Shown: positions 8,219 through 40,522, numbered from the stretch's first letter. The stretch: DNA of 40,522 nt from an uncultured Lachnospiraceae bacterium (GCA_902797385.1 CADBSR010000045.1:1-40522); one strand, 5' to 3'. Numbers and translations: made by a program. Notes: generated from the letters alone by a model not told the origin.

Positions 8219-11200
8219 TTATTCAGCCGCCTTCAGCGCTGCCGCCATATCGATCTTTGAAAGTTTGCGCATCATCAGCAGATACACTAACACCGAGAAG
8301 AACAGTGTAAAGCCGATCGCCCATAAGAAGCTCGGGAATTTGACGCGGGCTTCAAAATGTACCAGATCCACCTGAATGGCGCTCATGACGTAGCGGTTCA
8401 GAAGGATCCCGAGCGGAACGCCGAGCAGGGCGCCGAGGGCCGTGAGCAGGATGTTCTCGCGCAGTACATAAATGGCAGACTCACCCGCATAGAACCCCAG
8501 TACCTTGACGGTGGCGATCTCGCGCATGCGCTCTGTGATATTGATATTGATCAGGTTGTAGATGACAATAAAGGCCAGCGCCGCCGCACTGACGATGGTC
8601 AGGAGGACGATATAGATCAGATTGTCCATAATACTGCCGATCCGGTCCTTTAAGAGGCTGCCGGCGGTGACATTGATCACGCCTTCCACATTTAACAGAC
8701 GGGCGGTCGCATCCCCGGATCCTTCCCGCTTTAAAACAAACGCGTCTTTTTTCACGGGCGCGGAGCCGGTCAGGCTTTCGTAGGTCTCGTCCGAAATGAT
8801 CAGATAGTTGTAAATATAATTATCGAATACCGCCGAGACCGTCAGCTCGTAGCGGGTATCATTCAGCAGGAAGCTGAGGGTATCGCCGACGCCGACACCC
8901 AGCTCATTGGCCAGTCCGTTGTTCAGTACGGCCTGGGACTGGCCGGGGAAGGGAATGGCTTCATCTCCCTTGTGCAGGTGGATGTAGCGTGAGAATTCAG
9001 CCCCGCCTTCAGCCGAGAGCAGAAAAGCCGTTTTTTCTGTTTTGCCGTGAAAGGCCGTGACGGACTCCATGGAGACGAAGAGGGTATCGCCGCTGTAGCG
9101 GCGGGCTGTCTGGCGGAAGGCTTCCTGTACCTCGGGGCTCGGTGCCTCGCCGAACGTGACATCGTACTCGTAGAGCGTGATCTCTCCGTACTGGAACCCG
9201 ACGACGTCCTGGATCGAGTCACGGATCCCGTAGCCTGTGATCATGAGCGCCGTACAGCCGGCTACGCCGAGCAGCATCATCAGAACGCGGCTCCGGTAGC
9301 GGAAGATATTGCGCATGGTGACCTTCCACATGAAATTCAGATGATTCCATATAAGGGGGATCCGTTCCAGCAGGACCCGCTTGCCGAGCTTGGGCGCTTT
9401 GGGTCTGAGGATGACGGCCGGCATCTGTTTTAACTGGCCCCGCAGGGAGAACCAGGTCACGAGCATCATGACGGCGACATACAAAGCGGTAATGATCCCG
9501 TACAGCGGCCAGTCAAGATGGTAAAGCAGGCGGGGCGAGAAACTGTACATGATCCGGTAGGCCTGCCAGATCAGCTGAGGGAATACAAACGTAAAGAGAG
9601 GGACCCCGATCCCGCAGCCTAAAAGCGCTGCGGAGCCGGCGTAGAAGAGGAATTTGTTCATGACCTTCAGCTTGGGATAGCCAAGCGCCAGCAGGATCCC
9701 GAGCTGGCCCCGCTGTTCATCTACCATGCGGGCCATGGTGGTTACGCAGATCAGCGCGGCAACGGCAAAGAAGAAGACCGGAAAGACGCGGGCCACGCTG
9801 CGCACGATCTCGGAATCGTTGTCCAGGCAGGCATAGCCGATATTGGACCAGCGGCCCAGAACCATAACGGAAGGCGCCTTCAGCTCCTCCAGCTTTTTCC
9901 ACCCATCGTCCAGCTCGGCGCGGGCATCGGCCAGTTCGGCTTCGGCCTTGGCAAATTCGGCTTCCGCTTCTTCTTTGGCGTTGGCTAAATCCTCCAGGCC
10001 CTGATCATACTCGGCCTGCCCTTCTTCCAGCTGGCGGGCTGCGTCAGCCAGCTCGGCTTCAGCCGCCTCGAATTCTTCTTCGGCCTTGGCTTTGGCGTCG
10101 CGGAGCGCCTGCTCCCCTGCAAAATATTCATCCCAGCCATCATCCAGCTCTTTGCGGGAAGCGGCCAGTTTGGCCCGGGCCTGATTCAACTGGAGCCGGG
10201 AGGCTGCCAGCTGTTTGCGGGCATTTTCCATCTGTGTCCGGATATCGGAAGCCTGGCCGGTAAAATCCTGCATGATCGCGGCAGCGCTGTCATAAAGGGC
10301 AAGGCTGCTGTCCAGAAGATCCCGCAAAGAAGTGGCGAAGGATTCATCGTCAAGGGTCTGCTGTATTGCCTCCAGTCTGTCGATTGCCTGCCGGAAAGCC
10401 TTTATGGCATCCGTCTCTCCGAACTGTGCGCTTAAGCTGTCTGCCAGGGCATTGGAAGAGGCAATCAAAGTGCCAAGAGAAAGATCCAAAGTGCCTTTCG
10501 CACCTTCCCAGAGGAGGCGGACGGCTTCCTCGCGCTCTTCCTGTGTCAGGTCCGGATCCAGACTGATATCGGTATAATCCGTCAGCAGATTCCCCAGACG
10601 GGAGCGGACATCCTCGGAAGCAGTCCGGAAATCCATGTATTTATCCACAAGATCCAGGATCCCGGCATAATTCTGCGAAGACGATTCATACTGTGCCAGT
10701 CCGGCTGCATAGGAGGCTTCGCCGGCCTGATACTGTGCCAGCCCCTCTCCGTAGGCCTTTTCTCCGTCGGAAAGCTGCTGCAGGGCATCGTCGAGCTCTT
10801 TCTGGGCTGCGGCAAATTTTTCTTCGGCCGTAACTTTTCCTTCTGCCAGGGCCGCTGTCCCGTCGTCATATTCTTTCCGACCGTCCGCAAGCTGCTTCGC
10901 GGCATCGGCCAGCTCGGCCTCCCCGTCCGCGATCTTTTGCAGGGCATCTTCCTTCTGGCGCTCGTATTCGGCCAGACCGTCGGCATACTCGGCTTCCCCG
11001 TCCTCCAACTGCTTCCGGCTGTCGGTCAGGATCTGATCGTAGCGGGCCGAGGCGCCTGCTTCGGCAAGCGGCTTTAAGAGCGGTTCCATCGCATCGGCGG
11101 CCTGGTCGTAGGTCTCGGTATAGATCTCGCCCAAATGACCGCCGTTTACATAGAGCGAAGTATAATAATCCAGGGTAAAGCCTTCCGGCAGGATATAGGC

Positions 11201-11791
11201 AAAGGCGCTGACAGCCCCTGTTCCCAGAGAGGAGTTGCCGCGCTCATAATTCAGATAAAGCGGAGAATGCCCGAAGCCTGTCACGGTATAGCTTTTCCGG
11301 GCAAAAGAGGAGAGAGTGTCTTCGGTGTTCAGATCGGATAAAACGACTTCGTCCCCGATGACAAACGCATGGGCGGCAGCGGTGTCGAGCAGGACTTCAT
11401 CGTCTCTTTCAGGCGCCCGGCCGGAGGTCACGGAGACCAGATTGACCTTTGCGGGCAGGGCGTGGAAGCGTATGACCTGATCATCTTCGGGGTATGAGAC
11501 CAGGGCGTCCGCCTGCATGGCGCCTTCTGCTTTCAGGATCCCCGCCTGCCCTTCCAGCGTGTCGGCGGCATCCTTTTTAAAGCCAAGCGTGGAGATCAGC
11601 TGGAAATCGTAGAAGGAAGAGCGGTCAAGATAATCATCCGCGGTGATGACAATGGCGTCCCTTGTCCCCCGTAAGCCCGCAAAAAAGCCGGCCCCCAGCA
11701 TAATGATGCCCAGGATAGCCAGATATCGGCCCGGAGATTTAAAGATCTCCCGAAGCGTATTCTTGCGGAGTGCGGATTGATTTTTTACCAT
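8219..11791 (-). CDS. ABC transporter permease with two FtsX/MacB-type modules and a long extracytoplasmic coiled-coil insertion
   Basis: 1190 aa. Two FtsX-type junction motifs are present (...MARMVDEQRGQLGILLALGY... and ...ITERMREIATVKVLGF...), each followed by TM helices. An Ala/Glu/Asp/Gln-rich heptad-like region of about 450 aa has recurring ...AEAELADA..QL..G..EYD.G... segments. Confidence 0.85.
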   Translation of the reverse strand: MVKNQSALRKNTLREIFKSPGRYLAILGIIMLGAGFFAGLRGTRDAIVITADDYLDRSSFYDFQLISTLGFKKDAADTLEGQAGILKAEGAMQADALVSYPEDDQVIRFHALPAKVNLVSVTSGRAPERDDEVLLDTAAAHAFVIGDEVVLSDLNTEDTLSSFARKSYTVTGFGHSPLYLNYERGNSSLGTGAVSAFAYILPEGFTLDYYTSLYVNGGHLGEIYTETYDQAADAMEPLLKPLAEAGASARYDQILTDSRKQLEDGEAEYADGLAEYERQKEDALQKIADGEAELADAAKQLADGRKEYDDGTAALAEGKVTAEEKFAAAQKELDDALQQLSDGEKAYGEGLAQYQAGEASYAAGLAQYESSSQNYAGILDLVDKYMDFRTASEDVRSRLGNLLTDYTDISLDPDLTQEEREEAVRLLWEGAKGTLDLSLGTLIASSNALADSLSAQFGETDAIKAFRQAIDRLEAIQQTLDDESFATSLRDLLDSSLALYDSAAAIMQDFTGQASDIRTQMENARKQLAASRLQLNQARAKLAASRKELDDGWDEYFAGEQALRDAKAKAEEEFEAAEAELADAARQLEEGQAEYDQGLEDLANAKEEAEAEFAKAEAELADARAELDDGWKKLEELKAPSVMVLGRWSNIGYACLDNDSEIVRSVARVFPVFFFAVAALICVTTMARMVDEQRGQLGILLALGYPKLKVMNKFLFYAGSAALLGCGIGVPLFTFVFPQLIWQAYRIMYSFSPRLLYHLDWPLYGIITALYVAVMMLVTWFSLRGQLKQMPAVILRPKAPKLGKRVLLERIPLIWNHLNFMWKVTMRNIFRYRSRVLMMLLGVAGCTALMITGYGIRDSIQDVVGFQYGEITLYEYDVTFGEAPSPEVQEAFRQTARRYSGDTLFVSMESVTAFHGKTEKTAFLLSAEGGAEFSRYIHLHKGDEAIPFPGQSQAVLNNGLANELGVGVGDTLSFLLNDTRYELTVSAVFDNYIYNYLIISDETYESLTGSAPVKKDAFVLKREGSGDATARLLNVEGVINVTAGSLLKDRIGSIMDNLIYIVLLTIVSAAALAFIVIYNLININITERMREIATVKVLGFYAGESAIYVLRENILLTALGALLGVPLGILLNRYVMSAIQVDLVHFEARVKFPSFLWAIGFTLFFSVLVYLLMMRKLSKIDMAAALKAAE

Positions 11792-12489
11792 TCGATCTCC
11801 TCAATGGGAACCGGAGCCGGATTGATCTCCACCGAACTGACGGTTCCGTTCTTCACGCGGACCACCCGGTCAGCCATGGCGGTCAGCGCACTGTTATGGG
11901 TAATAATGATCACGGTCATACCGGTCTCTTTTCCGGTATCGGCCAGGAGTTTCAGGATCGCCTTGCCGGTTTCGTAATCCAGCGCACCGGTCGGTTCGTC
12001 GCAGAGCAGGAGCTTGGGGTTCTTGGCCAATGCGCGCGCAATGGCGACACGCTGCTGCTCCCCGCCGGAGAGTTGGGAGGGGAAGTTGTTCAGTCGGTGC
12101 CCAAGCCCTACTTTTTCCAGGGTCGTCCGGGCATCCAGGGGTTTGTCGCAGACCTGAGCGGCCAGCTCTACATTTTCCAAAGCGGTCAGATTCTCGATCA
12201 GATTGTAAAACTGGAAGACAAAGCCGATCTCTTTGCGCCGATAGGTGATGAGGGCACGCGGAGACAGGGCGGAGATATTTTCCCCGTCCAGCAGGACCCG
12301 TCCGTCCGTCAGGGTATCCATGCCCCCGAGTATATTGAGCAGCGTCGTTTTGCCGGCTCCGGAAGGCCCCACGATGACACAGAGCTCCCCTTTTTCTACG
12401 GTGAAACTGACGTCATGCAGAGCCGGGATCTCGACCTCTCCGGACTTATAGATCTTTTTGACATTTTCAAAACTGATGAAAGAGTACAT
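11785..12489 (-). CDS. ABC transporter ATP-binding protein (MacB/LolD-like)
   Basis: Walker [11 protein letters not shown]-loop, signature LSGGEQQR, Walker [13 protein letters not shown] and H-loop ITHN are all present. It overlaps the permease start by 7 nt. Confidence 0.9.
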
Positions 12490-29599: not shown

Positions 29600-29713
29600 G
29601 CGAACCGGAAGAGAAACGTATATCATCAAAAAAGGGATCCCTCGGGGCGCACTCCGTAAGGATGTTGCCCCGAGACGGCCGTTGTATCTGAATTAATTGT
29701 TTTTCGTTGAGAT

Positions 29714-29747
29714 ATCGGTGTAACGCGCATGGTTACACCGATTTTTT
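29714..29747 (+). terminator. rho-independent terminator downstream of pmbA
   Basis: An 11-bp stem pairs ATCGGTGTAAC (29714-29724) with GTTACACCGAT (29732-29742). It has a 7-nt loop and is followed by TTTTT. Confidence 0.7.
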
Positions 29748-30006
29748 GCTTCTTGACATGCTTGTAAAGCGGTGCTCCCTTATGATCGACCGATCCACAG
29801 GTCGGAGGCCGTGGATCGGGATTTTGTGGGGCAAAATCCGATGCTCGCTATTTCTTAGGACAATTCTTATGGAATGTCTTTCTGTGTATGTTTCCTGTTG
29901 CATTATTCCTATCACCTCAATCAAACTTGGCTATCATCAACACAATACATGAAGATATACACTCTGCCTCAGCGCTGTTATGCTATGAAAATATGTTGAC
30001 AAGCAT

Positions 30007-30036
30007 ATGATAGAACACATGTTCGATTGATGTCAA
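30007..30036 (-). promoter_or_regulatory. candidate LexA-repressed (SOS) promoter: TTGACA-N18-TATCAT with a Cheo-box-like operator in the spacer
   Basis: The minus strand reads TTGACA tcaatCGAACATGTGTTC TATCAT. The -35 is rc of 30031-30036 and the -10 is rc of 30007-30012. The box CGAACATGTGTTCT is rc of 30012-30025 and fits the Firmicutes LexA consensus CGAAC-N4-GTTCG. Confidence 0.35.
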
Positions 30037-30238
30037 GAGGGTTTCCATTAATTTTGTGGAAACACTCGAATGCAAAACCAACTTGTTGAAAATGATTTGA
30101 TTATTTTGAAGATTAATTCTGATGGCTCAACGGTCACCTATTTATTAATTATCATCCCTGCTGAAAGACTGCTTGATTTAAACTAAACGATAAGAAAACC
30201 TTTTTTTATCAAATATCCGTTCGAAAAGGAAAAATGTA

Positions 30239-30267
30239 TTGACTAAATAGAGGAGGTTCCATATAAT
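30239..30267 (+). promoter_or_regulatory. near-consensus sigma-A promoter of the four-gene cassette
   Basis: TTGACT (30239-30244), a 17-nt spacer, then TATAAT (30262-30267). An A-rich tract (GAAAAGGAAAAATG) sits immediately upstream. Confidence 0.6.
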
Positions 30268-30368
30268 ATACTATACAGACAGCCGTAAGGAACAGCTGCG
30301 CTCAGAAATTAGCAAAGCTATGTCTTTTACGAGCCGTGTCTGTAATAAAAGACTGGAGGAATCTGCAA

Positions 30369-30869
30369 ATGAAACAATTTAGAAAAACAGCAGCCGTTTT
30401 CCTGTGTCTGTCTGTGCTTATCTTTTCTGTCTACGTACCTGTACGCGCAGAGAATGAGACACCTTATTTCTATTCCGGCGCAGCAACAGCCGGGTATTGG
30501 AAAACAGAAGGGTCACACACCGTGAGCAGTTTGACGCTGCCGAGCCTTTATGGCGGAGATGTTGGCATAAATTTCTTTTACAATGCCGTCGGGCTACAGT
30601 CCTCGTTTGTTTACACGTCAAGCCGAACAGTCGATATTACATTCTATAACGAGGATCTAATCTGCGCACATCATTATCGTGGGTATTTTGGACTGACAAA
30701 TAATTATTATCGCCCGATAAGCTATAGTACGGTACATGCCTATTCCAGCCTTATATCCAGTACGTCTTCAGCTGATATGCACCTTGTATTCCAGGTTGGT
30801 ACAATTAGCGGGGACTTATCGGCTTCGGTCAAAATCGGCCTTCTAAAATATAAATTCTGGGCCTATTAA
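30369..30869 (+). CDS. small secreted protein of unknown family (Tyr/Ser/Gly/Thr-rich mature part of about 137 aa)
   Basis: Start set to ATG 30369, with GGAGGA 8 nt upstream. It has a Sec-type signal peptide MKQFRKTAAVFLCLSVLIFSVYVPVRA|ENE. The mature part has a single Cys and many aromatic residues, and ends ...LLKYKFWAY. Confidence 0.65.
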   Translation: MKQFRKTAAVFLCLSVLIFSVYVPVRAENETPYFYSGAATAGYWKTEGSHTVSSLTLPSLYGGDVGINFFYNAVGLQSSFVYTSSRTVDITFYNEDLICAHHYRGYFGLTNNYYRPISYSTVHAYSSLISSTSSADMHLVFQVGTISGDLSASVKIGLLKYKFWAY

Positions 30870-30886
30870 AAGTATTCGTTATGACA

Positions 30887-30915
30887 AATGGGGCAGAAGC
30901 GCATTCTGCCCCATT
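30887..30915 (+). promoter_or_regulatory. 12-bp intra-operon hairpin after the small secreted-protein gene (possible partial terminator or RNA stabiliser)
   Basis: AATGGGGCAGAA (30887-30898) pairs with TTCTGCCCCATT (30904-30915), with a 5-nt loop. There is no clean U-tract beyond the stem. Confidence 0.4.
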
Positions 30916-30941
30916 CAGACTTATGAAAGGAGGTCTGTTCG

Positions 30942-31949
30942 ATGACGCAAAAAACGGGATATACCGGCAGATTTTTGGCCTTTATGCTCAGCCTTTGTCT
31001 TCTTTGTACATCATGTCAGTCTCATACAGAGTTGGATGGTTCAGACAGTCCTTCTTCAGGAACAGGCAGTCCTTCTTCACAAACAAGCGTTGCCTCCTCG
31101 CAGGAGAGCAAGCCTGTTGTTGTTGCCTTTCAGCGGAAAATTGCCCATATAATGTGTGATGACGGATGGTGTTTCCAATTTGTGGAGGAAAAAAATAAAC
31201 CAGGTCTTATGGAGGACCATAGAGCATGCGTGTTCCTTGGGTTCAACCTTCGCTACCGCTATGATGAAGACTACGCCATTACGGAAGAGCTGATGGATGG
31301 CAACAAACTGATTGCTATTGAAACCTATCTCCCCAGCGGTATGATCTGGCAGGAAGGCCCGGAATCTCATAAGCGAGATTCTGCTATTATTCATGATTTT
31401 TTTGAACTTTCTGAAGAAGAAATGCTTCAGGCAGACCCGAAGGACTATAGCTTCGAAGCTTTGGATAAGGATATGTTCTTCGAGCTGGTGCATACGGCCC
31501 TTGAGGGCGATCCGGAGGAGGTAGGCTCTTTTGAATATCTTACCACGCTTCCTTCTTTTGCGATGACAGCAGAGCCTGAATATCTGGATGGTTATAAGAT
31601 TCAGATCGGATACATAGAGCCGATGGGAAACATCGATGAATTGTTTATTGATATCTGCTATCAAACGGGCGATGCCTATCACGATTATGTCCAGCTTTCC
31701 GATATGGTTGAGGATGGCTCTGCGAGTCCTGAACAGGCGGAAGCCTACCGAAAACTGAAGGAGATCGAGCGCGCGATCGTCGAACATAACCAGTTGAACT
31801 ATGGAGCAGAATCATACCGGACGCTTGAACTGGGCGGCATCCAGTTTGAACGACTTGCCACTTATTTGGAAAACCTTCATCAGGGGAAGTATGAAGGATA
31901 TCTTGGCGAAATGATCGAGCTGAGTCTTGAGTGGATGATTCCGCGGTAA
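30942..31949 (+). CDS. acidic probable lipoprotein of unknown family
   Basis: 335 aa, with AAAGGAGG 8 nt upstream of the ATG. The signal peptide ends ...LCLLCTS|C (a non-canonical lipobox) and is followed by a Ser/Gly/Pro-rich linker. The remainder is strongly Asp/Glu-rich. Confidence 0.65.
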   Translation: MTQKTGYTGRFLAFMLSLCLLCTSCQSHTELDGSDSPSSGTGSPSSQTSVASSQESKPVVVAFQRKIAHIMCDDGWCFQFVEEKNKPGLMEDHRACVFLGFNLRYRYDEDYAITEELMDGNKLIAIETYLPSGMIWQEGPESHKRDSAIIHDFFELSEEEMLQADPKDYSFEALDKDMFFELVHTALEGDPEEVGSFEYLTTLPSFAMTAEPEYLDGYKIQIGYIEPMGNIDELFIDICYQTGDAYHDYVQLSDMVEDGSASPEQAEAYRKLKEIERAIVEHNQLNYGAESYRTLELGGIQFERLATYLENLHQGKYEGYLGEMIELSLEWMIPR

Positions 31950-31959
31950 AAACATCAAT

Positions 31960-33948
31960 ATGATCGAATTCAGCCACGTCACAAAACATTACGGCAGTGA
32001 GTGCGTTCTGCGGGAGAGAAACGACCATTTCGGTGATCACGGCTTTTTTCTCCTTCTGGGAGAAAGCGGCAGCGGGAAAACCACCTTTTTGAATGTTCTT
32101 TTTGGCCTGCTTCCTTTCGATGCCGGCACCATTACGGTAGACGGTGTGACTTACAACGGACAGGTGGACCGGGAGACGATCTCGCAGAAGGCGGATTATA
32201 TCACGCAGGATCCGTTCTTTGTGGACTTTCTTACAGCAGAGGACAATCTTCGCATGGTTTGTGATGACCGGGAAGCGATCCGTGCAGAAGCCAGACGATT
32301 CGGCCTGGAGCCCTGCCTTGATCAGCTTCCCGCAACGCTTTCCGGAGGGGAGCAGCAGCGTCTGGCGGTGATACGCTCTCTGCTGCGCGGGAAAAAGATC
32401 CTGCTTCTGGATGAACCAACCGCTGCATTGGATGCGGAAAATAAGAAAAAACTGTTCGGGTTCCTGGCATCGCTGAAGGATCAGGCCTTGATCCTCTGTG
32501 CGTCGCATGACCAGGTCGCATCAGACTATGCGGATGCGGTCGTATCCTTTGATAAAGGAGGGAACCGGGATGAGGAGGCTGAAGCAGGAACCGAAAACGG
32601 TACCTGTGCCGGTGAGCTCCCGGCAGAGACTTTGGCTTCGGAACTGCCCCGGAAGGAGGCGGCAAATTCCCGTGGTGTTGCTGAGAAGGATCCCCGGCCG
32701 TGGCTGAGGCGCTGGTTCCGCAGTACCGGACTCGGAGGCATGCTGGGCAAAGCTGTTCTGATCCTTTTTCTCCTTACAGCATCTATCCTGTATATTTATG
32801 CGGATACGCCGAAGCACAAAATGGACAGTGTCAATGCATATGTTTATCATTTGACATTCGTTGAAGTCATAACGGATAATTACCATGACTGGGATGAGTT
32901 GTGCCCCTCCTGGGAAGACGTGCGGAAGGTGGTTCTGGATTACCGGCAGACCTGCCCGGATGGCAACGAGAACACGGGGTTTGAGGTTGGAGTGCCGGGT
33001 ACAGGCCCGGATTATGAATTGGATTTTGCCCTGACCGTTCCTTTTGAGGCGGAATACTTCCCCCTTGCGAAGCGGATTGTATACGGAACCTATTTTACCG
33101 GAGAGAATCAAATCATCCTGACATGGGAAGCCGCGAAGCTCCTGCGGCCGTACAAGCCTGAAAGGCTGATCGGAGAGACGCTTCAGAAGACATTTTACGG
33201 ACTGGGAACACTGGATATGGAGGTCGTAGGGATCCTGGGAGAGCTAAGTGAAGAAGAAAAATGGACTCTGGATCAGTTTGGAACAAGCAGGGGCATCTAT
33301 GATCACTATTATTTTATCAATTCGAAGCTGACGGATCGTTTGGCGGCAGATCCGAGCTTTTATTATAGGACAAGAGCCAACGGAAGACGGCATTATAACA
33401 TATATTTCGATTCCTACTTTGATGCGCAGCGCTATTATAAGCGTTATCTGCCGGAAGCGGGAACCGGGGCGGACTATACGCTTCAATTTGTATCCAGTCC
33501 GAATTTAGAGCTCTATCAGGACTTTCAGGGGACCTTCCCGGTTCTGATGCCGCTGTCGATTCTGGTCAGTGTCCTTGCATTGCTTTTCTATCTGCAACTC
33601 AGGAAAATGGAATATGATCACCGACATCGCTTTATTTCTGCCTTCGAATACGACGGTTACAATAAAAAGCGCGTCATACGGGATTTCCTACTGCTGAATA
33701 TCCGCAGCCTTTTGCGATGCATTCTGGCTGCCGCAGGCAGCGCGCTGCTGATAACGGCAGCGGTGAATAGGCTCAACGCGCAGCACCATTGGGTGCCGTA
33801 TCTTATCTTCAGCTATAATCTTCCCTTGCTGCTTGCCTATTTTATAGGAATGCTGTTGTTCGGGGCTCTATTTACCTGGCTTTTCTACCGAAAAGTCCGT
33901 GTAATGTCCTGGTATGAGGATCTGATTGATACCAGAGATCTGCTCTGA
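31960..33948 (+). CDS. fused ABC ATPase plus FtsX/MacB-type permease (paralog 1)
   Basis: 662 aa. It has Walker A GESGSGKTT, signature LSGGEQQR, Walker B ILLLDEPTAALD and H-loop ASHD. These are followed by TM1, an extracytoplasmic domain of about 270 aa and three C-terminal TM helices (MacB topology). Confidence 0.8.
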   Translation: MIEFSHVTKHYGSECVLRERNDHFGDHGFFLLLGESGSGKTTFLNVLFGLLPFDAGTITVDGVTYNGQVDRETISQKADYITQDPFFVDFLTAEDNLRMVCDDREAIRAEARRFGLEPCLDQLPATLSGGEQQRLAVIRSLLRGKKILLLDEPTAALDAENKKKLFGFLASLKDQALILCASHDQVASDYADAVVSFDKGGNRDEEAEAGTENGTCAGELPAETLASELPRKEAANSRGVAEKDPRPWLRRWFRSTGLGGMLGKAVLILFLLTASILYIYADTPKHKMDSVNAYVYHLTFVEVITDNYHDWDELCPSWEDVRKVVLDYRQTCPDGNENTGFEVGVPGTGPDYELDFALTVPFEAEYFPLAKRIVYGTYFTGENQIILTWEAAKLLRPYKPERLIGETLQKTFYGLGTLDMEVVGILGELSEEEKWTLDQFGTSRGIYDHYYFINSKLTDRLAADPSFYYRTRANGRRHYNIYFDSYFDAQRYYKRYLPEAGTGADYTLQFVSSPNLELYQDFQGTFPVLMPLSILVSVLALLFYLQLRKMEYDHRHRFISAFEYDGYNKKRVIRDFLLLNIRSLLRCILAAAGSALLITAAVNRLNAQHHWVPYLIFSYNLPLLLAYFIGMLLFGALFTWLFYRKVRVMSWYEDLIDTRDLL

Positions 33949-33963
33949 AAAGGGAGGCCGCGT

Positions 33964-35814
33964 ATGGAATTTCGTGCAGTTCATATTGGTAAGTCGTACG
34001 GAGACAGGATGGTCCTGAAGGATGTTTCCTACCACTTTTGCGAGGGACGGCTCTATGTAATCAAGGGCGTATCCGGCTGTGGAAAAACAACGTTCCTCAA
34101 TATTCTCGGAGGGATCGAAAAGGAGCATGAGGGCGAGGTCGTCTTTGATCAGCCGGAGGCGAGCGGCCAGATCCGCATCGGGTATCTGTTTCAAAAAAGT
34201 CTGCTGCTTTCTTCCCTGACAGTGGAAGAGAATCTGAGGCTGATTTGCTCAGACGCGGAGAAGATTTATGCCCTCTGCGACATGTGCGGCGTGAGCAGGC
34301 TGCTTGCCCGCAGGCCGGAACAGCTGTCTGGCGGGGAGAGACAGCGTATTTCTGTTGTACGCGCCCTGCTGACGGATCCTCAGCTGCTGCTTTGTGATGA
34401 GCCGACAGCTTCACTGGACGGGGTGAATTCGGAGAAGATTGCAGCTCTGATTGCGGAGCAGAAACAGGCAGGGCGCATCATCATTGTGGCAACGCACGAT
34501 CACTGTTTCGATGCGCTTGCCGATGAAATCCTGCAGCTGGACTATGGCACACTACTGCCTGCGAAAGAGAATGATCATGCATTGCAGGAACTGTTGCCGG
34601 AGCCGCAAAAGAGCGGAGATACGTTTCCTCCGGAAGAGCCTGCGGCTGCAGAAGGTGCGAAGGCTCCAGGGGGCAGGATGAATAAACCGTATGGCCTGAA
34701 TCCTTTCCGCTATGTGCTTCGGCGCCGTCCCGGACTTTTTTCGTTCGGATCTCTTTTTGCCCTTGTATTCGGTTTATTGCTTGTTATTCTGACCAGTACA
34801 GTTCGCACGAACTTCAGCCGGGAATACCAACGTATCCTTTTGCGCGGATATCCGACAGATTTGGTGATTTACTATAGATTTAATCTGGCTACTTTCCCTG
34901 AACAGTACCGCAGTATCATTACTTTTTATAAGGACCTTCATGCCTCAGAGGACAATGTGGAAGCGATGTACCTGCCAGTGCGAAAAGCAAGCGTCCTGAT
35001 CATAGAGGGGATGATTCCCTATGGAAGATTCCCGAATCGGGCGGATGAGGTCCTGGCAAGTCCGGAATACGCAGAGGCTAAATTCCCTGGAATGGATTTC
35101 AATGAGGTGGTTGGACAGAAGATCCGCTTCTGCGGGCTGGATCTAACGATTTCCGGTGTGATGGTGCCGGATACGGACAAAGAGCTCCAAATCAATTACC
35201 ATAATGATGTTTATTATCATACCTGGTACCGTCATCGGACGACTCGCGAGATCCTACTGATCCCCTATGAGACTTTGGAAAAGATCGGGACAGATGAGGA
35301 TAATAGTTTTCAGGTTGCCTATGTCCCCAACCTGGCGGAAGATGCGGTTATGCTGCAGGCGTTTATGGATTTTCTCAAATCAAACCCGAATCAGTACTAT
35401 TCCGAAATGCGGAAGGCGGAGCGGCAGGTGGAGCGGGTCAGCGGGAATATCACAAAGCTTATGACCATGACGGTCGGAATCATCTGCGCGTTCATGATTG
35501 CGGTGGTTTCGGCAGATCTTTCTTACCGGCGGCGCGAACTCGGTTATCTGCAGATCTTCGGCGTTCCGAAAAAAACGGTGGTGAAACTGGTCTTTACGGA
35601 ATATCTGATGAGAGTGCTGGCCTCCCTGATTCTGGCTGTAGTGATCGGGCTGCTTCTTATTACTGCCTATCGTCTGATTTTCGGAGCCTGGCTCTTCCCG
35701 GAAGCACGGTATACAACAAGAATGTGTCTGGGGATCGTTGCGGCTTTTCTGCTGACAGTCTTCGCCGCGATCAGGCTGTTTTTACGCCGTAGTATCATGC
35801 GCCTGATCCACTGA
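33964..35814 (+). CDS. fused ABC ATPase plus FtsX/MacB-type permease (paralog 2)
   Basis: 616 aa, with AAGGGAGG 6 nt upstream of the ATG. It has Walker A GVSGCGKTT, signature LSGGERQR, Walker [13 protein letters not shown] and H-loop ATHD. These are followed by TM1, an extracytoplasmic domain of about 230 aa, the FtsX junction ...RRRELGYLQIFGVPKK... and three TM helices. Confidence 0.8.
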   Translation: MEFRAVHIGKSYGDRMVLKDVSYHFCEGRLYVIKGVSGCGKTTFLNILGGIEKEHEGEVVFDQPEASGQIRIGYLFQKSLLLSSLTVEENLRLICSDAEKIYALCDMCGVSRLLARRPEQLSGGERQRISVVRALLTDPQLLLCDEPTASLDGVNSEKIAALIAEQKQAGRIIIVATHDHCFDALADEILQLDYGTLLPAKENDHALQELLPEPQKSGDTFPPEEPAAAEGAKAPGGRMNKPYGLNPFRYVLRRRPGLFSFGSLFALVFGLLLVILTSTVRTNFSREYQRILLRGYPTDLVIYYRFNLATFPEQYRSIITFYKDLHASEDNVEAMYLPVRKASVLIIEGMIPYGRFPNRADEVLASPEYAEAKFPGMDFNEVVGQKIRFCGLDLTISGVMVPDTDKELQINYHNDVYYHTWYRHRTTREILLIPYETLEKIGTDEDNSFQVAYVPNLAEDAVMLQAFMDFLKSNPNQYYSEMRKAERQVERVSGNITKLMTMTVGIICAFMIAVVSADLSYRRRELGYLQIFGVPKKTVVKLVFTEYLMRVLASLILAVVIGLLLITAYRLIFGAWLFPEARYTTRMCLGIVAAFLLTVFAAIRLFLRRSIMRLIH

Positions 35815-35984
35815 AAATGAGTTACTTTTCCCGAGTTACCCACCTTCAGGAAGCGGAATCGCCGGAGCCTCCTTTCTGGTCTTGTATGGTTCTGGGTAGT
35901 TCAGTTCATGTCAAATGAGATCTGCGATCTCCAAAAACTATCGAACGCACGTTTGACTTCGATCCCCCTATGCTCCACGAAATA

Positions 35985-36012
35985 AAAGGTCAGCCGTATT
36001 GCTGGCCTTTTT
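35985..36012 (+). terminator. rho-independent terminator closing the cassette
   Basis: AAAGGTCAGC (35985-35994) pairs with GCTGGCCTTT (36001-36010), including one G-U pair. It has a 6-nt loop and a T-run through 36012. Confidence 0.55.
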
Positions 36013-36200
36013 GTTACTTAATTGCGAAACTAACGTCCGGTTTGCAGAAGTAAAACTCATATGGGAGGCTTTCATCTATGTCTTCTCCAAAGGTTCGTGA
36101 TAGATGGGCAGAAAGAGATAGGCCTATTATACCGTCGGTCACATTCATGGTCTTTACGTTAAAAATGAGATATATTTTTATAAATATTACGTAAATTATG

Positions 36201-36289: not shown

Positions 36290-39200
36290 ATGTCTAAGAA
36301 CCATCTTTTCAAGAGTATAGCGATAATTCTTTGCGCTGTTCTATGTGTTAACCTGATTTCCCCTGCTGCAAATGCGGAGGATATTCCGGAGCCGACTACT
36401 GAAGCAGAAAGCGATTCCCCTGAGACAGATGCCAATCCGGAGTATCCGGAAACTCTGTTGCCGGCGTTAAACGCGCCAACCGGGGAGAATCGGAGTGCAA
36501 ATGTTTTTTCGGATATCCCGATTGAACTGAATGATGATACGATCCTGGACGAACTACCCGAAAAACGTGAGATTGGTGCAAAACATTTCCGCCTTTCTGA
36601 CGGGAGCCGGGCAGCTGTCGCTTATGGCTATCCGGTGCATGAAGCGGATGAAAACGGTCAGTTGATCGAAATTGATAACACGCTTCAGCAAACGGAAGCT
36701 GGCGGTCATATAAACTACGTACAAAAAAGCATATCCAGGCAGACGACCTTCTTCGGCAATCCGGAGGACGGTCGTCTGTTTCGTTATGATCTGAAAGACG
36801 GTTCCATGGAGTGGGGGCTTGTATCTGAATCCCTTCAGGTGCCGCAGATCAGCTATGAACCATCCCATGCTGAGAAAGGCAAAGAAAAGCTGGCGACCAA
36901 AGCCCTGAGCGGTCTTCTGACCTATCATGAAATCCTTCCTGCCCTGAACCTGGAATACGGCTTAGTCGGTCATGACTTAAAGGAAAACCTGGTCCTGTTT
37001 TCTCCCGAAGCAGCTGCCGCTAATCCGCAGGGCTTTACCTTCCGCCTGTATCTGGAAAACCGCCGCGCGGAGCAGGCGGATGAAAAGACAATCCGGATCC
37101 TGAATGCTTCCGGCGAGGAAGAGTATATCATTTCCGCTCCTTACATGATGGATGACGCGGGAGAAATCAGCAGTAAGCTACAGCTGCTCCTTGCGGAAAC
37201 CGAGGAAGCAGGAACATACACAGTCAGCCTGATTCCGGATCAGTCCTGGCTGCTTGATGAAGAACGCGCATACCCTGTCAGAATCGATCCCTCCATTGCC
37301 CTCGCTTACAGCGGGTACCATACGCTCCAGAATGCGACGCTTGCGTCTGTGGATCCCAATGCCAACCTGTATAACTATGGCAGCATGTATGTAGGCCGTC
37401 AGGGCAGTATGCAAAACGTACGCGGGGCCTATAAGATCCAAAATCTGCCGGTCTTAAGCGAATCGGACATGATCATCCAGGCTTCGGTCAGCTTTAAGGT
37501 GATGTCCTACAGCCAGATGGGATCTTCTCACAGCGGAACCATGGTTTTAAACATGTTCCCTCTGACCACGGATGTCGCCATATCGGCTCTCAACTGGGGA
37601 AATCTTGCCGGCTATACCGGCGATTATGTCATTGATTCCCAGCGGGTCGAACCAAATGAAGCGGCGAATATCAAGCCGCGCATCACCTGGGATATCACCA
37701 GGGCTGTCAAGACCTGGTATAACGACGGAACCAACTACGGCATGGTCATTGCTTCAGAAAATGAGTCTCCGACAACGATACGTTTTGTGCAGCTGACAAC
37801 TGCCACCAATTCTCAGTATATCAATGAAAACAGCCCGATCTTTACCCTTACCTATCTGAATCAGGAAGGGCTGGAAAGTTATCTCTCCTATCACAGTTCC
37901 GGCTCCGGAACCATGGGTTCTATCCATGTGGGCGACTTTAACGGAAACCTGGTGTATACCTACTCTGATCTGGATATGAGCGGAGCGTATCTGCCCATCA
38001 GCATTTCTCATGTATACAATCACAGCCGAAGAGGCACGTCTGCCCTGGTTGGCAGCGGCATGTATTACGGCAACGGCATGCGCTTAAATCTGTCCATGCG
38101 GATCGAAAGCTGTTCTGTCCAAGGTTACCCTTATCAGTTGACGGATGCGGATGGAACGGTTCACTATTTCTCCTTAAAGAGCGGCACATCCGGCGCAACA
38201 GGCTCCGTTTATGAAAAAGAGTTTGAGACGACTACGACCTTAAGCAAGACCTCCTCCGGTTATACGCTGGATGATGGAGGAACGATCCTGTATTACTTTA
38301 ATACCAGCGGCTACCTGACGCAGATTTCAGATATCACTAACAGCAAAACACAGACATTAACATACACCAGCGGCCTCCTGACAAAGGTGACGGACGGCGC
38401 GGGCCGATACGCGGCTCTTACGTATAACAGCAGCGGATATCTGACTGGGATCACCGACCCGGCCGGCAGAATGACGTCTTACAGCTATGCAAACGGAAAC
38501 CTGACGACGATCACAAGACCGGATGGATTGACGGTTACTCTTACATACACGTTAACAAACAGTACCTACATGCTGACAAAGGTGAAGGACGTCGATAACC
38601 GCAGCATAGGGATCACTTACGATACCCACGCGCCTTACCGCGTTAAGCAGCTATTGGAATACGGGGCGGATAACAGTCAGGGCCAGCGGCTGCAGTGGAC
38701 CTACTCAGAAGGGGAAACAACGATCATCGACCGTCAGGGAAGAAGCGAAACCATGCTCTTTGACAACAGCGGCCACACCGTAGTGACCCGTGACGGAGAA
38801 GGACATGCGGTCTACGGCGGCTACGGTGAAACGGCAGACAACCTAAAGCACTCCCTGCTGTACCTGTCCAAGATGAGGGGGAGCATAAGGAACCTGGCGG
38901 TCAATCATGATTTTGAAGCGAGTGCAACCAGTCCGTGGACGGCCTTTGCTAATGGGGAAGGTAGTATCACTTTAGACACTGCAACAGTCAGGGAAGGACA
39001 AAAGAGTTTAAAAATCATCAGCACTAACAGCAACTCTCTTACATATGGTACGTGCCAGCAGATTTCAATTCCGGGTGTGGCCGGAAAGACCTATACTCTT
39101 TCCGGCTATGTGTACTTCAGCAATTATAATCCAACATCTACGGTAGGGTTTAAACTGGGCTTCAGTTATCTCAATACATCCAACAGCTGGCAGAATATCT

Positions 39201-40522
39201 ATGGTCCTATTGTCCCGGCCCAAAATGGATGGACCCGATTCTCCATGACGTATACAGTCCCGACAAGCATCGGTCAGGAGAAGCTCCGTGTCTTTTTCCT
39301 GATGGGAGGAACAGGAACCTGCTATCTGGATTCCGTTCAATTGGTTGAGGGCTCCGTCTCCGAATCCTACAACATGCTGGAAAACGGACATTTCAGCGAT
39401 GCCACCGGAACTACCTCTCCCAGCAAGTGGACAGTCATTTCTTCCGGGACGGGTGATGGCGTAACGACCGGTCGTGGTGGAAACGGCTACGGCTTAAACG
39501 GAGAGGCACTGGTAGAAAAAGGAATCTATCAGGTCATTCCGGTGAAGAACGGCCTGGCCGGCGATAACTATGTCTTCGGTGCCTGGGCAAAGGCAGAGTC
39601 TATTCCACGGATCGGCCTTTTTAAGAATGACAGCCGCGACTTTGCCGTACGGATCCGCTTTATCAAGAGCAACAACACGTATGAAGAGAGCGTCTTTAAT
39701 TTCGAGGCAAAAACACCGAACTGGCAGTATCTGTCCGGCTCGGTGGCAGCGCCATGTGCCTACGTCAGTATCCAGTATGCTCTCATTTACAACAATCAAA
39801 AGAACCCGGTCGTCTTTGATGATGCGGAACTTTACCGGGAACGTTTCGGCGACCGGCTGGAGTATGATACATATGGGCGGATCACCTCCCGCACGGATCC
39901 GGATGGTCTTACAACGACATACGAGTATCAGTGGGCCGGCCGGCCGGAGATCAAAAAAGTCACTTTCCCGGACGGTACCAGCACGACTTACAGTTACAAC
40001 AGTAGCAACCGCCGGCTTCTGACGGTCACCGACGCCAGCGGAAAGGTACTGACCTACAGTTATGATACGAACGGCAACGCTACCTCCGTCAGCACTACCG
40101 TGGGTGGCCAGACCTTAAGCAGCGGAACAACCGCTTACAGCGGCAGCTACGTCAGCAGCGTAACAGATCCCTTCGGAAACGTTACGAGCTTTGCTTACAC
40201 GCAGAACAAAGGCCTTCTGACAACGGTCACGAATGCCAAGAGCGTAGCGACCAGCTATACCTACAACGCGAACAATGACCAGCTGACACAGGTGCAGACC
40301 GGCTCCAGCCAGGTGCAGTACGGGTATACGAATACCCGTCTGGTCTCGCTGACGCACAACACGTCCACGTCCACTTCCTGCAACGTCGTTTATAACCTCA
40401 GCTATAACACCTTCGGCACGCAGACAGCCATTAAGGTCGGAACGCAAAACCTGGCTTCCTATACCTATGCCGCAAACAACGGAGAACTCACCCGGACCAC
40501 CTACGGCAACGGACAGTATTCC
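36290..40522 (+). CDS. Rhs/YD-repeat polymorphic-toxin family protein with Sec signal peptide (3' end outside window)
   Basis: This gene is not in the supplied ORF track because it has no stop in the window. AAAGGAGG lies 7 nt upstream of ATG 36290, and my own translation gives 1411 codons open to base 40522. The signal peptide is MSKNHLFKSIAIILCAVLCVNLISPAANA|ED. A DNRLRE-like lectin region spans about 37283-37870 (...ITWDITRAVKTWYNDGTNYGMVI...). Many YD repeats follow, e.g. LTYTSGLLTKVTDGAGRYAALTYNSSGYLTGITDPAGRMTSYSYANGNLTTITRPDG, YDTYGRITSRTDPDGLTTTYEY and YSYDTNGNATSV. Confidence 0.85.
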   Translation, partial: MSKNHLFKSIAIILCAVLCVNLISPAANAEDIPEPTTEAESDSPETDANPEYPETLLPALNAPTGENRSANVFSDIPIELNDDTILDELPEKREIGAKHFRLSDGSRAAVAYGYPVHEADENGQLIEIDNTLQQTEAGGHINYVQKSISRQTTFFGNPEDGRLFRYDLKDGSMEWGLVSESLQVPQISYEPSHAEKGKEKLATKALSGLLTYHEILPALNLEYGLVGHDLKENLVLFSPEAAAANPQGFTFRLYLENRRAEQADEKTIRILNASGEEEYIISAPYMMDDAGEISSKLQLLLAETEEAGTYTVSLIPDQSWLLDEERAYPVRIDPSIALAYSGYHTLQNATLASVDPNANLYNYGSMYVGRQGSMQNVRGAYKIQNLPVLSESDMIIQASVSFKVMSYSQMGSSHSGTMVLNMFPLTTDVAISALNWGNLAGYTGDYVIDSQRVEPNEAANIKPRITWDITRAVKTWYNDGTNYGMVIASENESPTTIRFVQLTTATNSQYINENSPIFTLTYLNQEGLESYLSYHSSGSGTMGSIHVGDFNGNLVYTYSDLDMSGAYLPISISHVYNHSRRGTSALVGSGMYYGNGMRLNLSMRIESCSVQGYPYQLTDADGTVHYFSLKSGTSGATGSVYEKEFETTTTLSKTSSGYTLDDGGTILYYFNTSGYLTQISDITNSKTQTLTYTSGLLTKVTDGAGRYAALTYNSSGYLTGITDPAGRMTSYSYANGNLTTITRPDGLTVTLTYTLTNSTYMLTKVKDVDNRSIGITYDTHAPYRVKQLLEYGADNSQGQRLQWTYSEGETTIIDRQGRSETMLFDNSGHTVVTRDGEGHAVYGGYGETADNLKHSLLYLSKMRGSIRNLAVNHDFEASATSPWTAFANGEGSITLDTATVREGQKSLKIISTNSNSLTYGTCQQISIPGVAGKTYTLSGYVYFSNYNPTSTVGFKLGFSYLNTSNSWQNIYGPIVPAQNGWTRFSMTYTVPTSIGQEKLRVFFLMGGTGTCYLDSVQLVEGSVSESYNMLENGHFSDATGTTSPSKWTVISSGTGDGVTTGRGGNGYGLNGEALVEKGIYQVIPVKNGLAGDNYVFGAWAKAESIPRIGLFKNDSRDFAVRIRFIKSNNTYEESVFNFEAKTPNWQYLSGSVAAPCAYVSIQYALIYNNQKNPVVFDDAELYRERFGDRLEYDTYGRITSRTDPDGLTTTYEYQWAGRPEIKKVTFPDGTSTTYSYNSSNRRLLTVTDASGKVLTYSYDTNGNATSVSTTVGGQTLSSGTTAYSGSYVSSVTDPFGNVTSFAYTQNKGLLTTVTNAKSVATSYTYNANNDQLTQVQTGSSQVQYGYTNTRLVSLTHNTSTSTSCNVVYNLSYNTFGTQTAIKVGTQNLASYTYAANNGELTRTTYGNGQYS

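Follow-up and report, generated by a model that had tools for sequence, protein, structure and literature searches.

What four linked genes do together, when the first two belong to no catalogued protein family and the last two specify transporters, is the question raised by a cassette in the DNA of an uncultured Lachnospiraceae bacterium (GCA_902797385.1, CADBSR010000045.1:1-40522). This stretch of 40,522 nucleotides (nt) was analysed at its full length and is referred to as the window. A sequence-only reading had described in it a self-contained cassette for a small secreted protein, an acidic lipoprotein and two fused ATP-binding cassette (ABC) proteins of the MacB type, and had proposed that it joins a secreted effector to self-protection. 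The four co-directional open reading frames (ORFs) on the + strand (30369-35814) were confirmed, and the cassette is real. It represents a mobile gene module found in Clostridia of the gut and rumen, and both of its core families are undescribed in the literature and libraries searched. By analogy with known systems, the best reading of the module is a Sec-secreted antagonistic protein, a binding lipoprotein and a heterodimeric MacB-type extruder, to which about even confidence is given.

Distribution and architecture of the module

Word-index homology searches with single proteins returned 2-3 relatives only and misleadingly suggested that the genes were orphans. A pattern scan of one genome per species with three lipoprotein sequences retrieved 14 loci, whose hosts are Lachnospiraceae, Butyrivibrio, Ruminococcus, Oscillospiraceae and other Clostridia represented by metagenome-assembled genomes (MAGs) from gut and rumen; a metagenome scan with A1 gave three loci only. 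The linkage of the genes, on which the sequence-only reading had staked its proposal, is kept across many Clostridia, and neither the small protein nor the lipoprotein showed homology to housekeeping or substrate-binding families.

The lipoprotein gene follows the small gene in all 15 distinct loci that have a small gene. The two are directly adjacent in 13 of these. L017 has a LytTR regulator gene between them, and L007 breaks off 89 nt into the lipoprotein gene. Loci with the lipoprotein gene and both ABC genes but no small gene are found too (L004, L010, L020 and L038/L039), and in L015, where the contig ends inside the lipoprotein gene, no small gene lies upstream of it. A closer comparison of L038/L039 with L040, which are 97.3% identical over the lipoprotein, ABC-A and ABC-B genes, showed that the former lack, with precise ends, a segment of about 560 nt that holds the small gene together with its ribosome-binding site, so that the retained promoter abuts the lipoprotein gene. 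As read from this alignment, the difference is a natural clean deletion of the small gene. Both states can be present in one host, as a single Butyrivibrio MAG holds L017, with the small gene, and L010, without it.

Other loci contain the small and lipoprotein genes with no ABC genes. In L029/L030 the pair, with abutting stop and start codons, stands alone between housekeeping genes; in L011-L013 it adjoins resolvase, methylase or helicase genes; and in L023-L028 (e.g. L023 6001-7392) it is inserted on the opposite strand of an SPbeta-like prophage, with YonD_N, YonG_N, YonK, ANT, HU and a YonO-like RNA-dependent RNA polymerase around it. Searches of IMG/VR, the INPHARED phages and the PLSDB plasmids gave no match for either family. 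Where ABC genes are present, A-type and B-type orthologues always occur together. The order of small gene and lipoprotein gene is the invariant core of the module, and the ABC pair is added in most Lachnospiraceae-type copies. The four-gene unit is conserved as a linked set, as had been proposed, but it is not indivisible, being composed of a two-gene core and an optional ABC pair.

Degraded copies were seen as well. In L016 (10789-16407) the ABC-A orthologue is truncated at 401 amino acids (aa) and followed by relaxase- and integrase-like genes, as judged by sequence alone, which suggests that a mobile element inserted into this cassette. In L019 ABC-B is reduced to a 116-aa remnant after the lipoprotein gene.

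The small secreted protein

The product of the first gene carries a single hydrophobic segment near its N-terminus (residues 7-25) together with a VRA/EN cleavage site, as expected for the cleavable Sec signal described earlier, and its mature part of 137 aa shows the Tyr/Ser/Gly-rich composition noted in the sequence-only reading (Ser 14.6%, Tyr 10.9%, Thr 8.8%, Gly 8.8%). Its lack of any assignable family was also borne out. Pfam, NCBIfam, PADLOC, PHROGs and PDB gave no match for the window protein, the 12 family members had 0 matches in curated families, and the family profile found nothing significant among PDB sequences.

The homologues, located directly upstream of lipoprotein homologues, show identities of 23-81%, those recovered by tblastn and hidden Markov model (HMM) searches of the loci lying at 23-40%. 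All of them bear similar signal peptides and share the motifs GGDxGxWF, SR, ExD, GxF and SGDxS..P and a C-terminal Y..W. No relation between the small family and the lipoprotein family was detected by hhalign. As defined by these sequences, the small protein founds a previously unannotated family.

The lipoprotein and its globular domain

The product of the second gene is a probable lipoprotein and very acidic, as anticipated (pI 4.3). Compared with the lipobox pattern [LVI][ASTVI][GAS]C, its sequence LLCTSC is non-canonical, with a Cys at position -3, and the homologues carry LVSC, LCAC, VSCS and similar sequences. An exhaustive HMM search gathered 223 cluster representatives at E <= 0.001. 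That it has no known family was confirmed in Pfam, NCBIfam, PADLOC, PHROGs and PDB; 110 family members compared with Pfam gave no meaningful match, and the family profile gave nothing significant against PDB sequences.

The globular domain could be modelled with high confidence by AlphaFold from a 110-sequence alignment (pLDDT 96.4, pTM 0.91). The model comprises a sheet of five strands at the N-terminus, a segment of helices and a further alpha/beta part. Foldseek searches with this model against the PDB and BFVD libraries gave no match at E <= 0.001. The best match was 3o6u (CPE2226), with E = 0.022, a probability of 0.99 and a TM-score of 0.50 when normalised to the target and 0.24 when normalised to the query, over about 120 residues, that is, below half of the domain. 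The protein has been described as an FMN-bind1 domain (PMC10339131, PMC11334425).

The same domain is found outside the cassettes. It forms the extracytoplasmic C-terminus of the BlaR1-type M56 proteins P0035 and P0053, which have a BlaI gene upstream, and P0078 has the same M56-type N-terminus by sequence. It is also the external part of the anti-sigma-like protein P0017, whose gene overlaps an extracytoplasmic function (ECF) sigma gene, and P0022 and P0073 present, as judged by sequence, similar single-pass, anti-sigma-like N-termini. One of the BlaR1-type fusions is encoded on a small contig that also holds Mob_Pre and AAA_25 genes and resembles a mobilisable plasmid. Because it is used as the outward part of BlaR1-type and anti-sigma proteins, the lipoprotein domain is, on the evidence of these fusions, a binding or sensing module for a ligand or a protein. 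There is a precedent for the sensing of an antimicrobial protein in this way, as the anti-sigma factor RsiV binds lysozyme directly (PMC4183432). In the BlaR1-type and anti-sigma-like fusions the lipoprotein domain takes the place of the sensor domain. Compared with BlaR1/MecR1 and RsiV, known extracytoplasmic sensors of antimicrobial agents, it is by Foldseek unrelated to the penicillin-binding or RsiV domains, and the window copy differs in being a free lipoprotein with no signalling part.

The ABC pair

The description of the last two genes as fused MacB-type ABC proteins was correct. Each product has an N-terminal ABC_tran and a C-terminal FtsX domain, the latter arranged as a first transmembrane (TM) segment, an external domain and three further TM segments. 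The external domains are about 247 aa (ABC-A) and 222 aa (ABC-B) long, which corrects the 230-270 aa given before. In Pfam, ABC-A matched ABC_tran (8e-25) and FtsX (1.3e-4; 22.4 bits, under the cut-off of 25.5), and ABC-B matched ABC_tran (1e-27), FtsX (1.6e-8, above the cut-off) and, weakly, MacB_PCD (4.6e-4). This last domain (Porter/Sabre) reached 21.0 bits in ABC-B against a 27-bit cut-off and had no match in ABC-A. The hydropathy profiles placed the TM segments at residues 261-279, 527-545, 584-602 and 623-641 of ABC-A and at residues 258-276, 499-517, 548-566 and 589-607 of ABC-B. Both proteins retain intact Walker A, signature, Walker B and H-loop motifs, which are conserved in the ABC-A orthologues.

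ABC-A and ABC-B can be aligned in the ATPase domain only, where they are 37% identical. Since such divergent paralogues are always paired, the two most likely form a heterodimer, as far as can be deduced from their sequences. The external domains could not be aligned by sequence to solved structures, and the sole PDB sequence match of the permease half was the lantibiotic-resistance permease PsdB (E = 0.04, over one FtsX repeat). PADLOC and PHROGs returned generic ATPase matches only.

The arrangement of an ATPase with a 4-TM FtsX permease whose first two TM segments flank a large external domain, as E. coli MacB has it, is shared with the MacB/type VII superfamily (MacB, LolCDE, FtsEX, BceAB), and judged on this domain order the ABC proteins have the architecture of MacB-type transporters. 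They differ from MacB in being paired paralogues with no fusion-protein partner, as no membrane-fusion (MacA-like) gene was found in the window or in 13 related cassettes; their partner is a lipoprotein of unassigned fold. A BceAB-type transporter was considered and rejected, the four TM segments being fused to the ATPase here, whereas a 10-TM BceB works with a separate BceA. A BceRS-type two-component neighbour was discarded likewise, the regulators of the relatives being of the agr/LytTR type instead.

Regulation of the cassette

The 72-nt spacer after the small gene folds at -27.8 kcal/mol (z = -4.5). Its 12-bp stem is kept in L007 with a different loop. Hairpins are also found at this place in L009, L018, L021 and L040, with a weaker one in L008, and their sequences are unrelated. 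Six loci that contain ABC genes have a strong hairpin behind the small gene, and none is present where the small and lipoprotein genes abut. The hairpin may serve to raise the small-gene transcript relative to the downstream genes.

Five relatives adjoin agr-type quorum-sensing genes. In L009 and L021 a LytTR response regulator, a GHKL (AgrC-like) kinase, AgrB and an AgrD-like peptide are encoded directly upstream of the cassette, and the AgrD-like peptides beside these loci contain ..SACIWITHQEKMPEN.. and ..CRCIYHQPKLPEEL..; in L016, L017 and L018 parts of the agr/LytTR set adjoin. The AgrB stop codon of L021 is only 30 nt from the start codon of the small protein. An upstream motif common to the loci was not found. 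The statement that no two-component system lies near the cassette is true of the window but cannot be extended to the relatives, which do carry dedicated quorum-sensing regulators.

Relation to known systems

The nearest loci in logic are those of lactococcin-972 (lcn972-orf2-orf3 of pBL1; pneumococcal scbABC), in which the bacteriocin gene is followed by two genes assigned to immunity and transport (PMC11796350, PMC4055356). In both cases the gene of a Sec-dependent unmodified protein comes first and no dedicated C39 exporter belongs to the locus, none being present in the window. Some members of both are under LytTR-type control, seen as a ComE site at scb (PMC11796350, PMC4055356) and as agr neighbours in the relatives described here, and the bacteriocin gene is missing in some scb strains (PMC11796350), as is the small gene in some cassettes. 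The ATPases point in the same direction, with TIGR03608 (the lactococcin-972-group ABC) as the top NCBIfam match of both (118.6 and 158.2 bits, well under the cut-off of 254.85) and a 30% identity of ABC-B to the pBL1 Orf3 ATPase.

The small protein was nevertheless rejected as a member of the lactococcin-972 family (TIGR01653). Neither the window protein nor the 12 family members had an NCBIfam match, the hhalign probability was 0.6% with an Lcn972 sequence verified as 100% identical to that of pBL1, and the mature small protein is twice as long as Lcn972. BLASTP of ABC-B against pBL1 Orf2 (TIGR01654/DUF1430) gave a best E-value of 1.4, the permease halves matching FtsX instead. The cassette has two paralogous ATPases, each joined to a 4-TM FtsX domain, and the lipoprotein is an obligatory partner, whereas Lcn972 loci have none. 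The lactococcin-972-like logic of the sequence-only reading is retained in the order of a Sec-dependent small gene and subsequent membrane and ABC genes, but the small protein is not a detectable Lcn972 relative; the two kinds of loci would be analogous rather than homologous.

For the lipoprotein and the ABC pair, the closest functional analogy is probably provided by LanI and LanFEG (e.g. NisI/NisFEG), where a lipoprotein at the cell surface binds the producer's antimicrobial and an ABC transporter expels it from the membrane, each being partly dispensable. NCBIfam and Foldseek gave no match to LanI or LanFEG in sequence or fold. The cassette encodes an unmodified Sec-exported protein of about 15 kDa in place of a modified peptide, and its ABC proteins are of the MacB/FtsX type and not of the ABC-2 type.

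Proposed function and alternative explanations

In the proposed mechanism the small protein, probably beta-rich and of about 140 aa, would be a bacteriocin-like exoprotein that acts on competitors at their envelope, and the stem-loop after its gene would let it be produced in larger amounts than the downstream products. The lipoprotein would be the cognate protection factor, binding the small protein at the producer's own surface, and ATP-driven motion of the large external domains of the ABC pair would dislodge the small protein from the membrane or wall. The operon would be wired to agr-type quorum sensing in the relatives and, in this genome, driven by a strong, constitutive-looking promoter alone.

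A secreted antagonist with cognate protection is suggested because the small gene never occurs without the lipoprotein gene, which often occurs without it, and because the small gene can be cleanly lost with the promoter kept. Carriage on mobile elements and in a prophage, the quorum-sensing neighbours and the hairpin after the first gene argue for the same reading, as does the position of the window copy, a low-GC insert beside an Rhs gene, with other copies near resolvase or restriction-type genes. A comparable split has been reported for streptococcin B loci, about 25% of strains being without a functional bacteriocin peptide and competence regulatory region (PMC11796350). The secreted effector and self-protection of the sequence-only reading thereby find linkage, asymmetry, agr neighbours, mobility and the hairpin in their favour, and the toxicity of the small protein, like the binding and the extrusion, is a step that we infer.

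Several observations weigh against this interpretation. The small protein has no recognisable toxin, enzyme or pore-forming domain, and its single-sequence AlphaFold model is unusable (pLDDT 31). The mature members of its family are mostly acidic to neutral (pI 4.3-7.1), unlike typical cationic bacteriocins, and in the sole close pair dN/dS is 0.33-0.38, indicating purifying selection and not diversification. In a mirror-tree test, of low power with 7 loci and near-saturated distances, the small protein and lipoprotein distances correlated with r = 0.12, and those of the lipoprotein and the ABC proteins with 0.36-0.59. The window contains no agr quorum-sensing genes and no LytTR-type direct repeats upstream of the small gene. 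Finally, the lipoprotein domain may bind something other than the small protein.

The persistence of the lipoprotein and the ABC pair in the absence of the small gene would also be accounted for by an envelope-defence module, in which these proteins detect and remove an exogenous envelope-active compound (as BceAB or YknWXYZ-type systems do) and the small protein is a non-toxic decoy, co-receptor or modulator. The co-variation of lipoprotein and ABC distances, in which the small protein does not take part, the BlaR1-type and anti-sigma sensors that use the lipoprotein domain with no small gene nearby, and the PsdB match of the permease half are all consistent with it. This explanation is considered unlikely: the small gene is never found alone, it opens the operon and has a hairpin behind it, small and lipoprotein pairs exist with no ABC genes, and an accessory role of the small protein leaves unexplained why prophages or mobile elements carry just this pair. 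The same dispensability of the ABC genes, seen in several small and lipoprotein loci, makes it quite improbable that the small protein, once exported by Sec, is released, folded or modified with the help of the lipoprotein and the MacB-type pair, as dispersin is handled by the MacB-like Aat system, to yield a surface or matrix factor. MacB-type transporters do handle Sec-exported proteins in Gram-negative bacteria, the conserved order of small gene and partner genes would suit such a role, and quorum-sensing control would fit a biofilm or surface factor too, but the lipoprotein and ABC genes are retained after the precise loss of what would be their substrate gene.

The opposite-strand insertion of the small and lipoprotein pair in an SPbeta-like prophage brings up a surface module of prophages or mobile elements, with a lipoprotein that blocks the entry of phage or conjugative DNA (as Ltp-type proteins do) or mediates adhesion and a small protein as its partner. 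With most copies chromosomal and accompanied by ABC and agr genes, and with no match for either protein in PHROGs, PADLOC, IMG/VR or sequenced phage records, this is regarded as very improbable. The lead offered by 3o6u, the closest fold neighbour, would make the lipoprotein a divergent FMN-binding domain flavinylated by ApbE and the whole a redox cassette for an extracytosolic flavoprotein. It was rejected on the flavinylation motif and is hardly credible: Dxx[S/T]GA[S/T] is absent, and the equivalent site reads G-[K/T/E/S]-A-[T48 S36 D16 N8], the pattern of a helix N-cap that does not need a hydroxyl residue, the last position being D or N in 22% of the 110 members. Furthermore, Pfam FMN_bind was matched by 0 of the 110 members of the lipoprotein family, and no apbE gene lies in any cassette examined.

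Returning to the antagonist and its protection factor, a broader view of the lipoprotein would be that its domain is a dedicated receptor for a family of secreted protein toxins or signals of about 15 kDa, used as a free immunity lipoprotein, together with a heterodimeric MacB-type extruder, or as the sensor head of BlaR1-type proteases and anti-sigma factors. This extension is put forward as a tentative and rather doubtful one.

Boundaries and genomic setting

The positions of the genes and signals are collected in Table 1. The small-gene start is placed earlier in a mechanical ORF list (GTG 30336), and the ATG at 30369 was adopted. Successive genes are separated by 72, 10 and 15 nt, within the gaps of 10-72 nt given by the sequence-only reading, and the near-consensus promoter and the stem-loop with a T-run named there as the bounds of the cassette were both found by a consensus scan.

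Table 1. Coordinates of the cassette features in the window and of related features in other loci (locus handle given before the positions).
Feature	Position	Strand	Description
Sigma-70-type promoter	30239..30267	+	TTGACT-17-TATAAT; 11/12 consensus positions matched
Small gene	30369..30869	+	ORF, 166 aa; ATG with GGAGG 8 nt upstream; Sec-secreted protein
Stem-loop	30887..30915	+	12 bp, no T-run; between small and lipoprotein genes
Lipoprotein gene	30942..31949	+	ORF, 335 aa; low-complexity linker and ~280-aa globular domain
ABC-A	31960..33948	+	ORF, 662 aa; ATPase fused to 4-TM FtsX-type permease
ABC-B	33964..35814	+	ORF, 616 aa; paralogous fused ATPase and 4-TM FtsX-type permease
Intrinsic-terminator-like hairpin	35984..36011	+	11 pairs; T-rich tail TTTTGTT to 36016
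AgrD-like precursors	L021 5795-5941; L009 within 9027-9260		..VENSACIWITHQEKMPENARRLRKF; ..GATCRCIYHQPKLPEELLKK..; beside AgrB genes
Fusions of the lipoprotein domain	L022 376-2533; L033 5624-7869; L031 4045-5705		BlaR1-type M56 or anti-sigma-like

The promoter match by itself is weak evidence, since 15 promoter-like sites were present in the 7.3 kb scanned for 9.6 +/- 3.1 expected. The call gains weight because the alignment of the window with the related contig L007 starts at 30272, immediately behind the -10 box, the DNA upstream being unrelated. At the other end, the terminator lies about 170 nt beyond the ABC-B stop codon. Rfam gave no match over 29.5-36.4 kb.

The GC content is 0.41-0.46 at 29.5-32 kb and about 0.55 in the housekeeping block upstream (CysRS, SpoU methylase, arginine deiminase, TldD/PmbA), and the Rhs gene begins at 36290, in agreement with the A/T-richer segment directly upstream of an Rhs gene that had been described. 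The Rhs-repeat protein is large, has its own Sec-type signal peptide and is encoded in lower-GC DNA (36290-40522) that runs off the window end, its C-terminal toxin end falling outside the window; an Rhs neighbour is seen for the window copy of the cassette only. The absence of a two-component system, a C39 exporter and a membrane-fusion gene nearby was confirmed for the window, in which AgrB was not found either.

Between the PmbA terminator (29714-29742) and the cassette promoter lies an AT-rich spacer of about 640 nt (29600-30238) with no convincing gene and several short palindromes (e.g. 30037-30067), in which no agr gene remnants are recognisable. Just past the cassette terminator, a stretch of 61 nt (36012-36072) contains the imperfect inverted repeat TTGCGAAAC-N9-GTTTGCA. 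It is present as a single copy in the window and recurs, with 77% identity, in L007 (233-293), where it is placed about 330 nt upstream of the cassette; no other locus has it. It could be an operator or a recombination scar of the movement of the cassette relative to it.

A 92-aa ORF in another frame (30881-31159) overlaps the start of the lipoprotein gene, and its equivalent was called as a gene at the contig end of L007. Because the conserved frame is that of the lipoprotein, this ORF is in all likelihood an artefact of gene calling. The minus strand (8219-12489) encodes a further, unrelated ABC system of the FtsX type, with a 1190-aa permease that has two FtsX domains and MacB_PCD (8219-11791) and a separate 234-aa ATPase (11785-12489).

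Biological implications

The module adds two unannotated protein families, one of them with a confident model and no significant PDB match, in Lachnospiraceae, Ruminococcus and Oscillospiraceae. These taxa are dominant in gut and rumen, and little is known of their antagonism systems, which current annotation libraries miss. If the small protein is an antagonist, the weaponry of these bacteria would include a new class of protein bacteriocin, exported by Sec and paired with a dedicated immunity lipoprotein, and the ABC pair may be the first example of an obligately heterodimeric fused MacB-type transporter in monoderms. The natural variants without the small gene offer ready-made sets of producer, immune and sensitive strains. 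The lipoprotein domain would link immunity with BlaR1-type and anti-sigma signalling, and, were it indeed a receptor for secreted proteins, these Clostridia would share an undescribed network of protein-mediated antagonism and detection, in which non-producers carry immunity-only or sensor-only versions.

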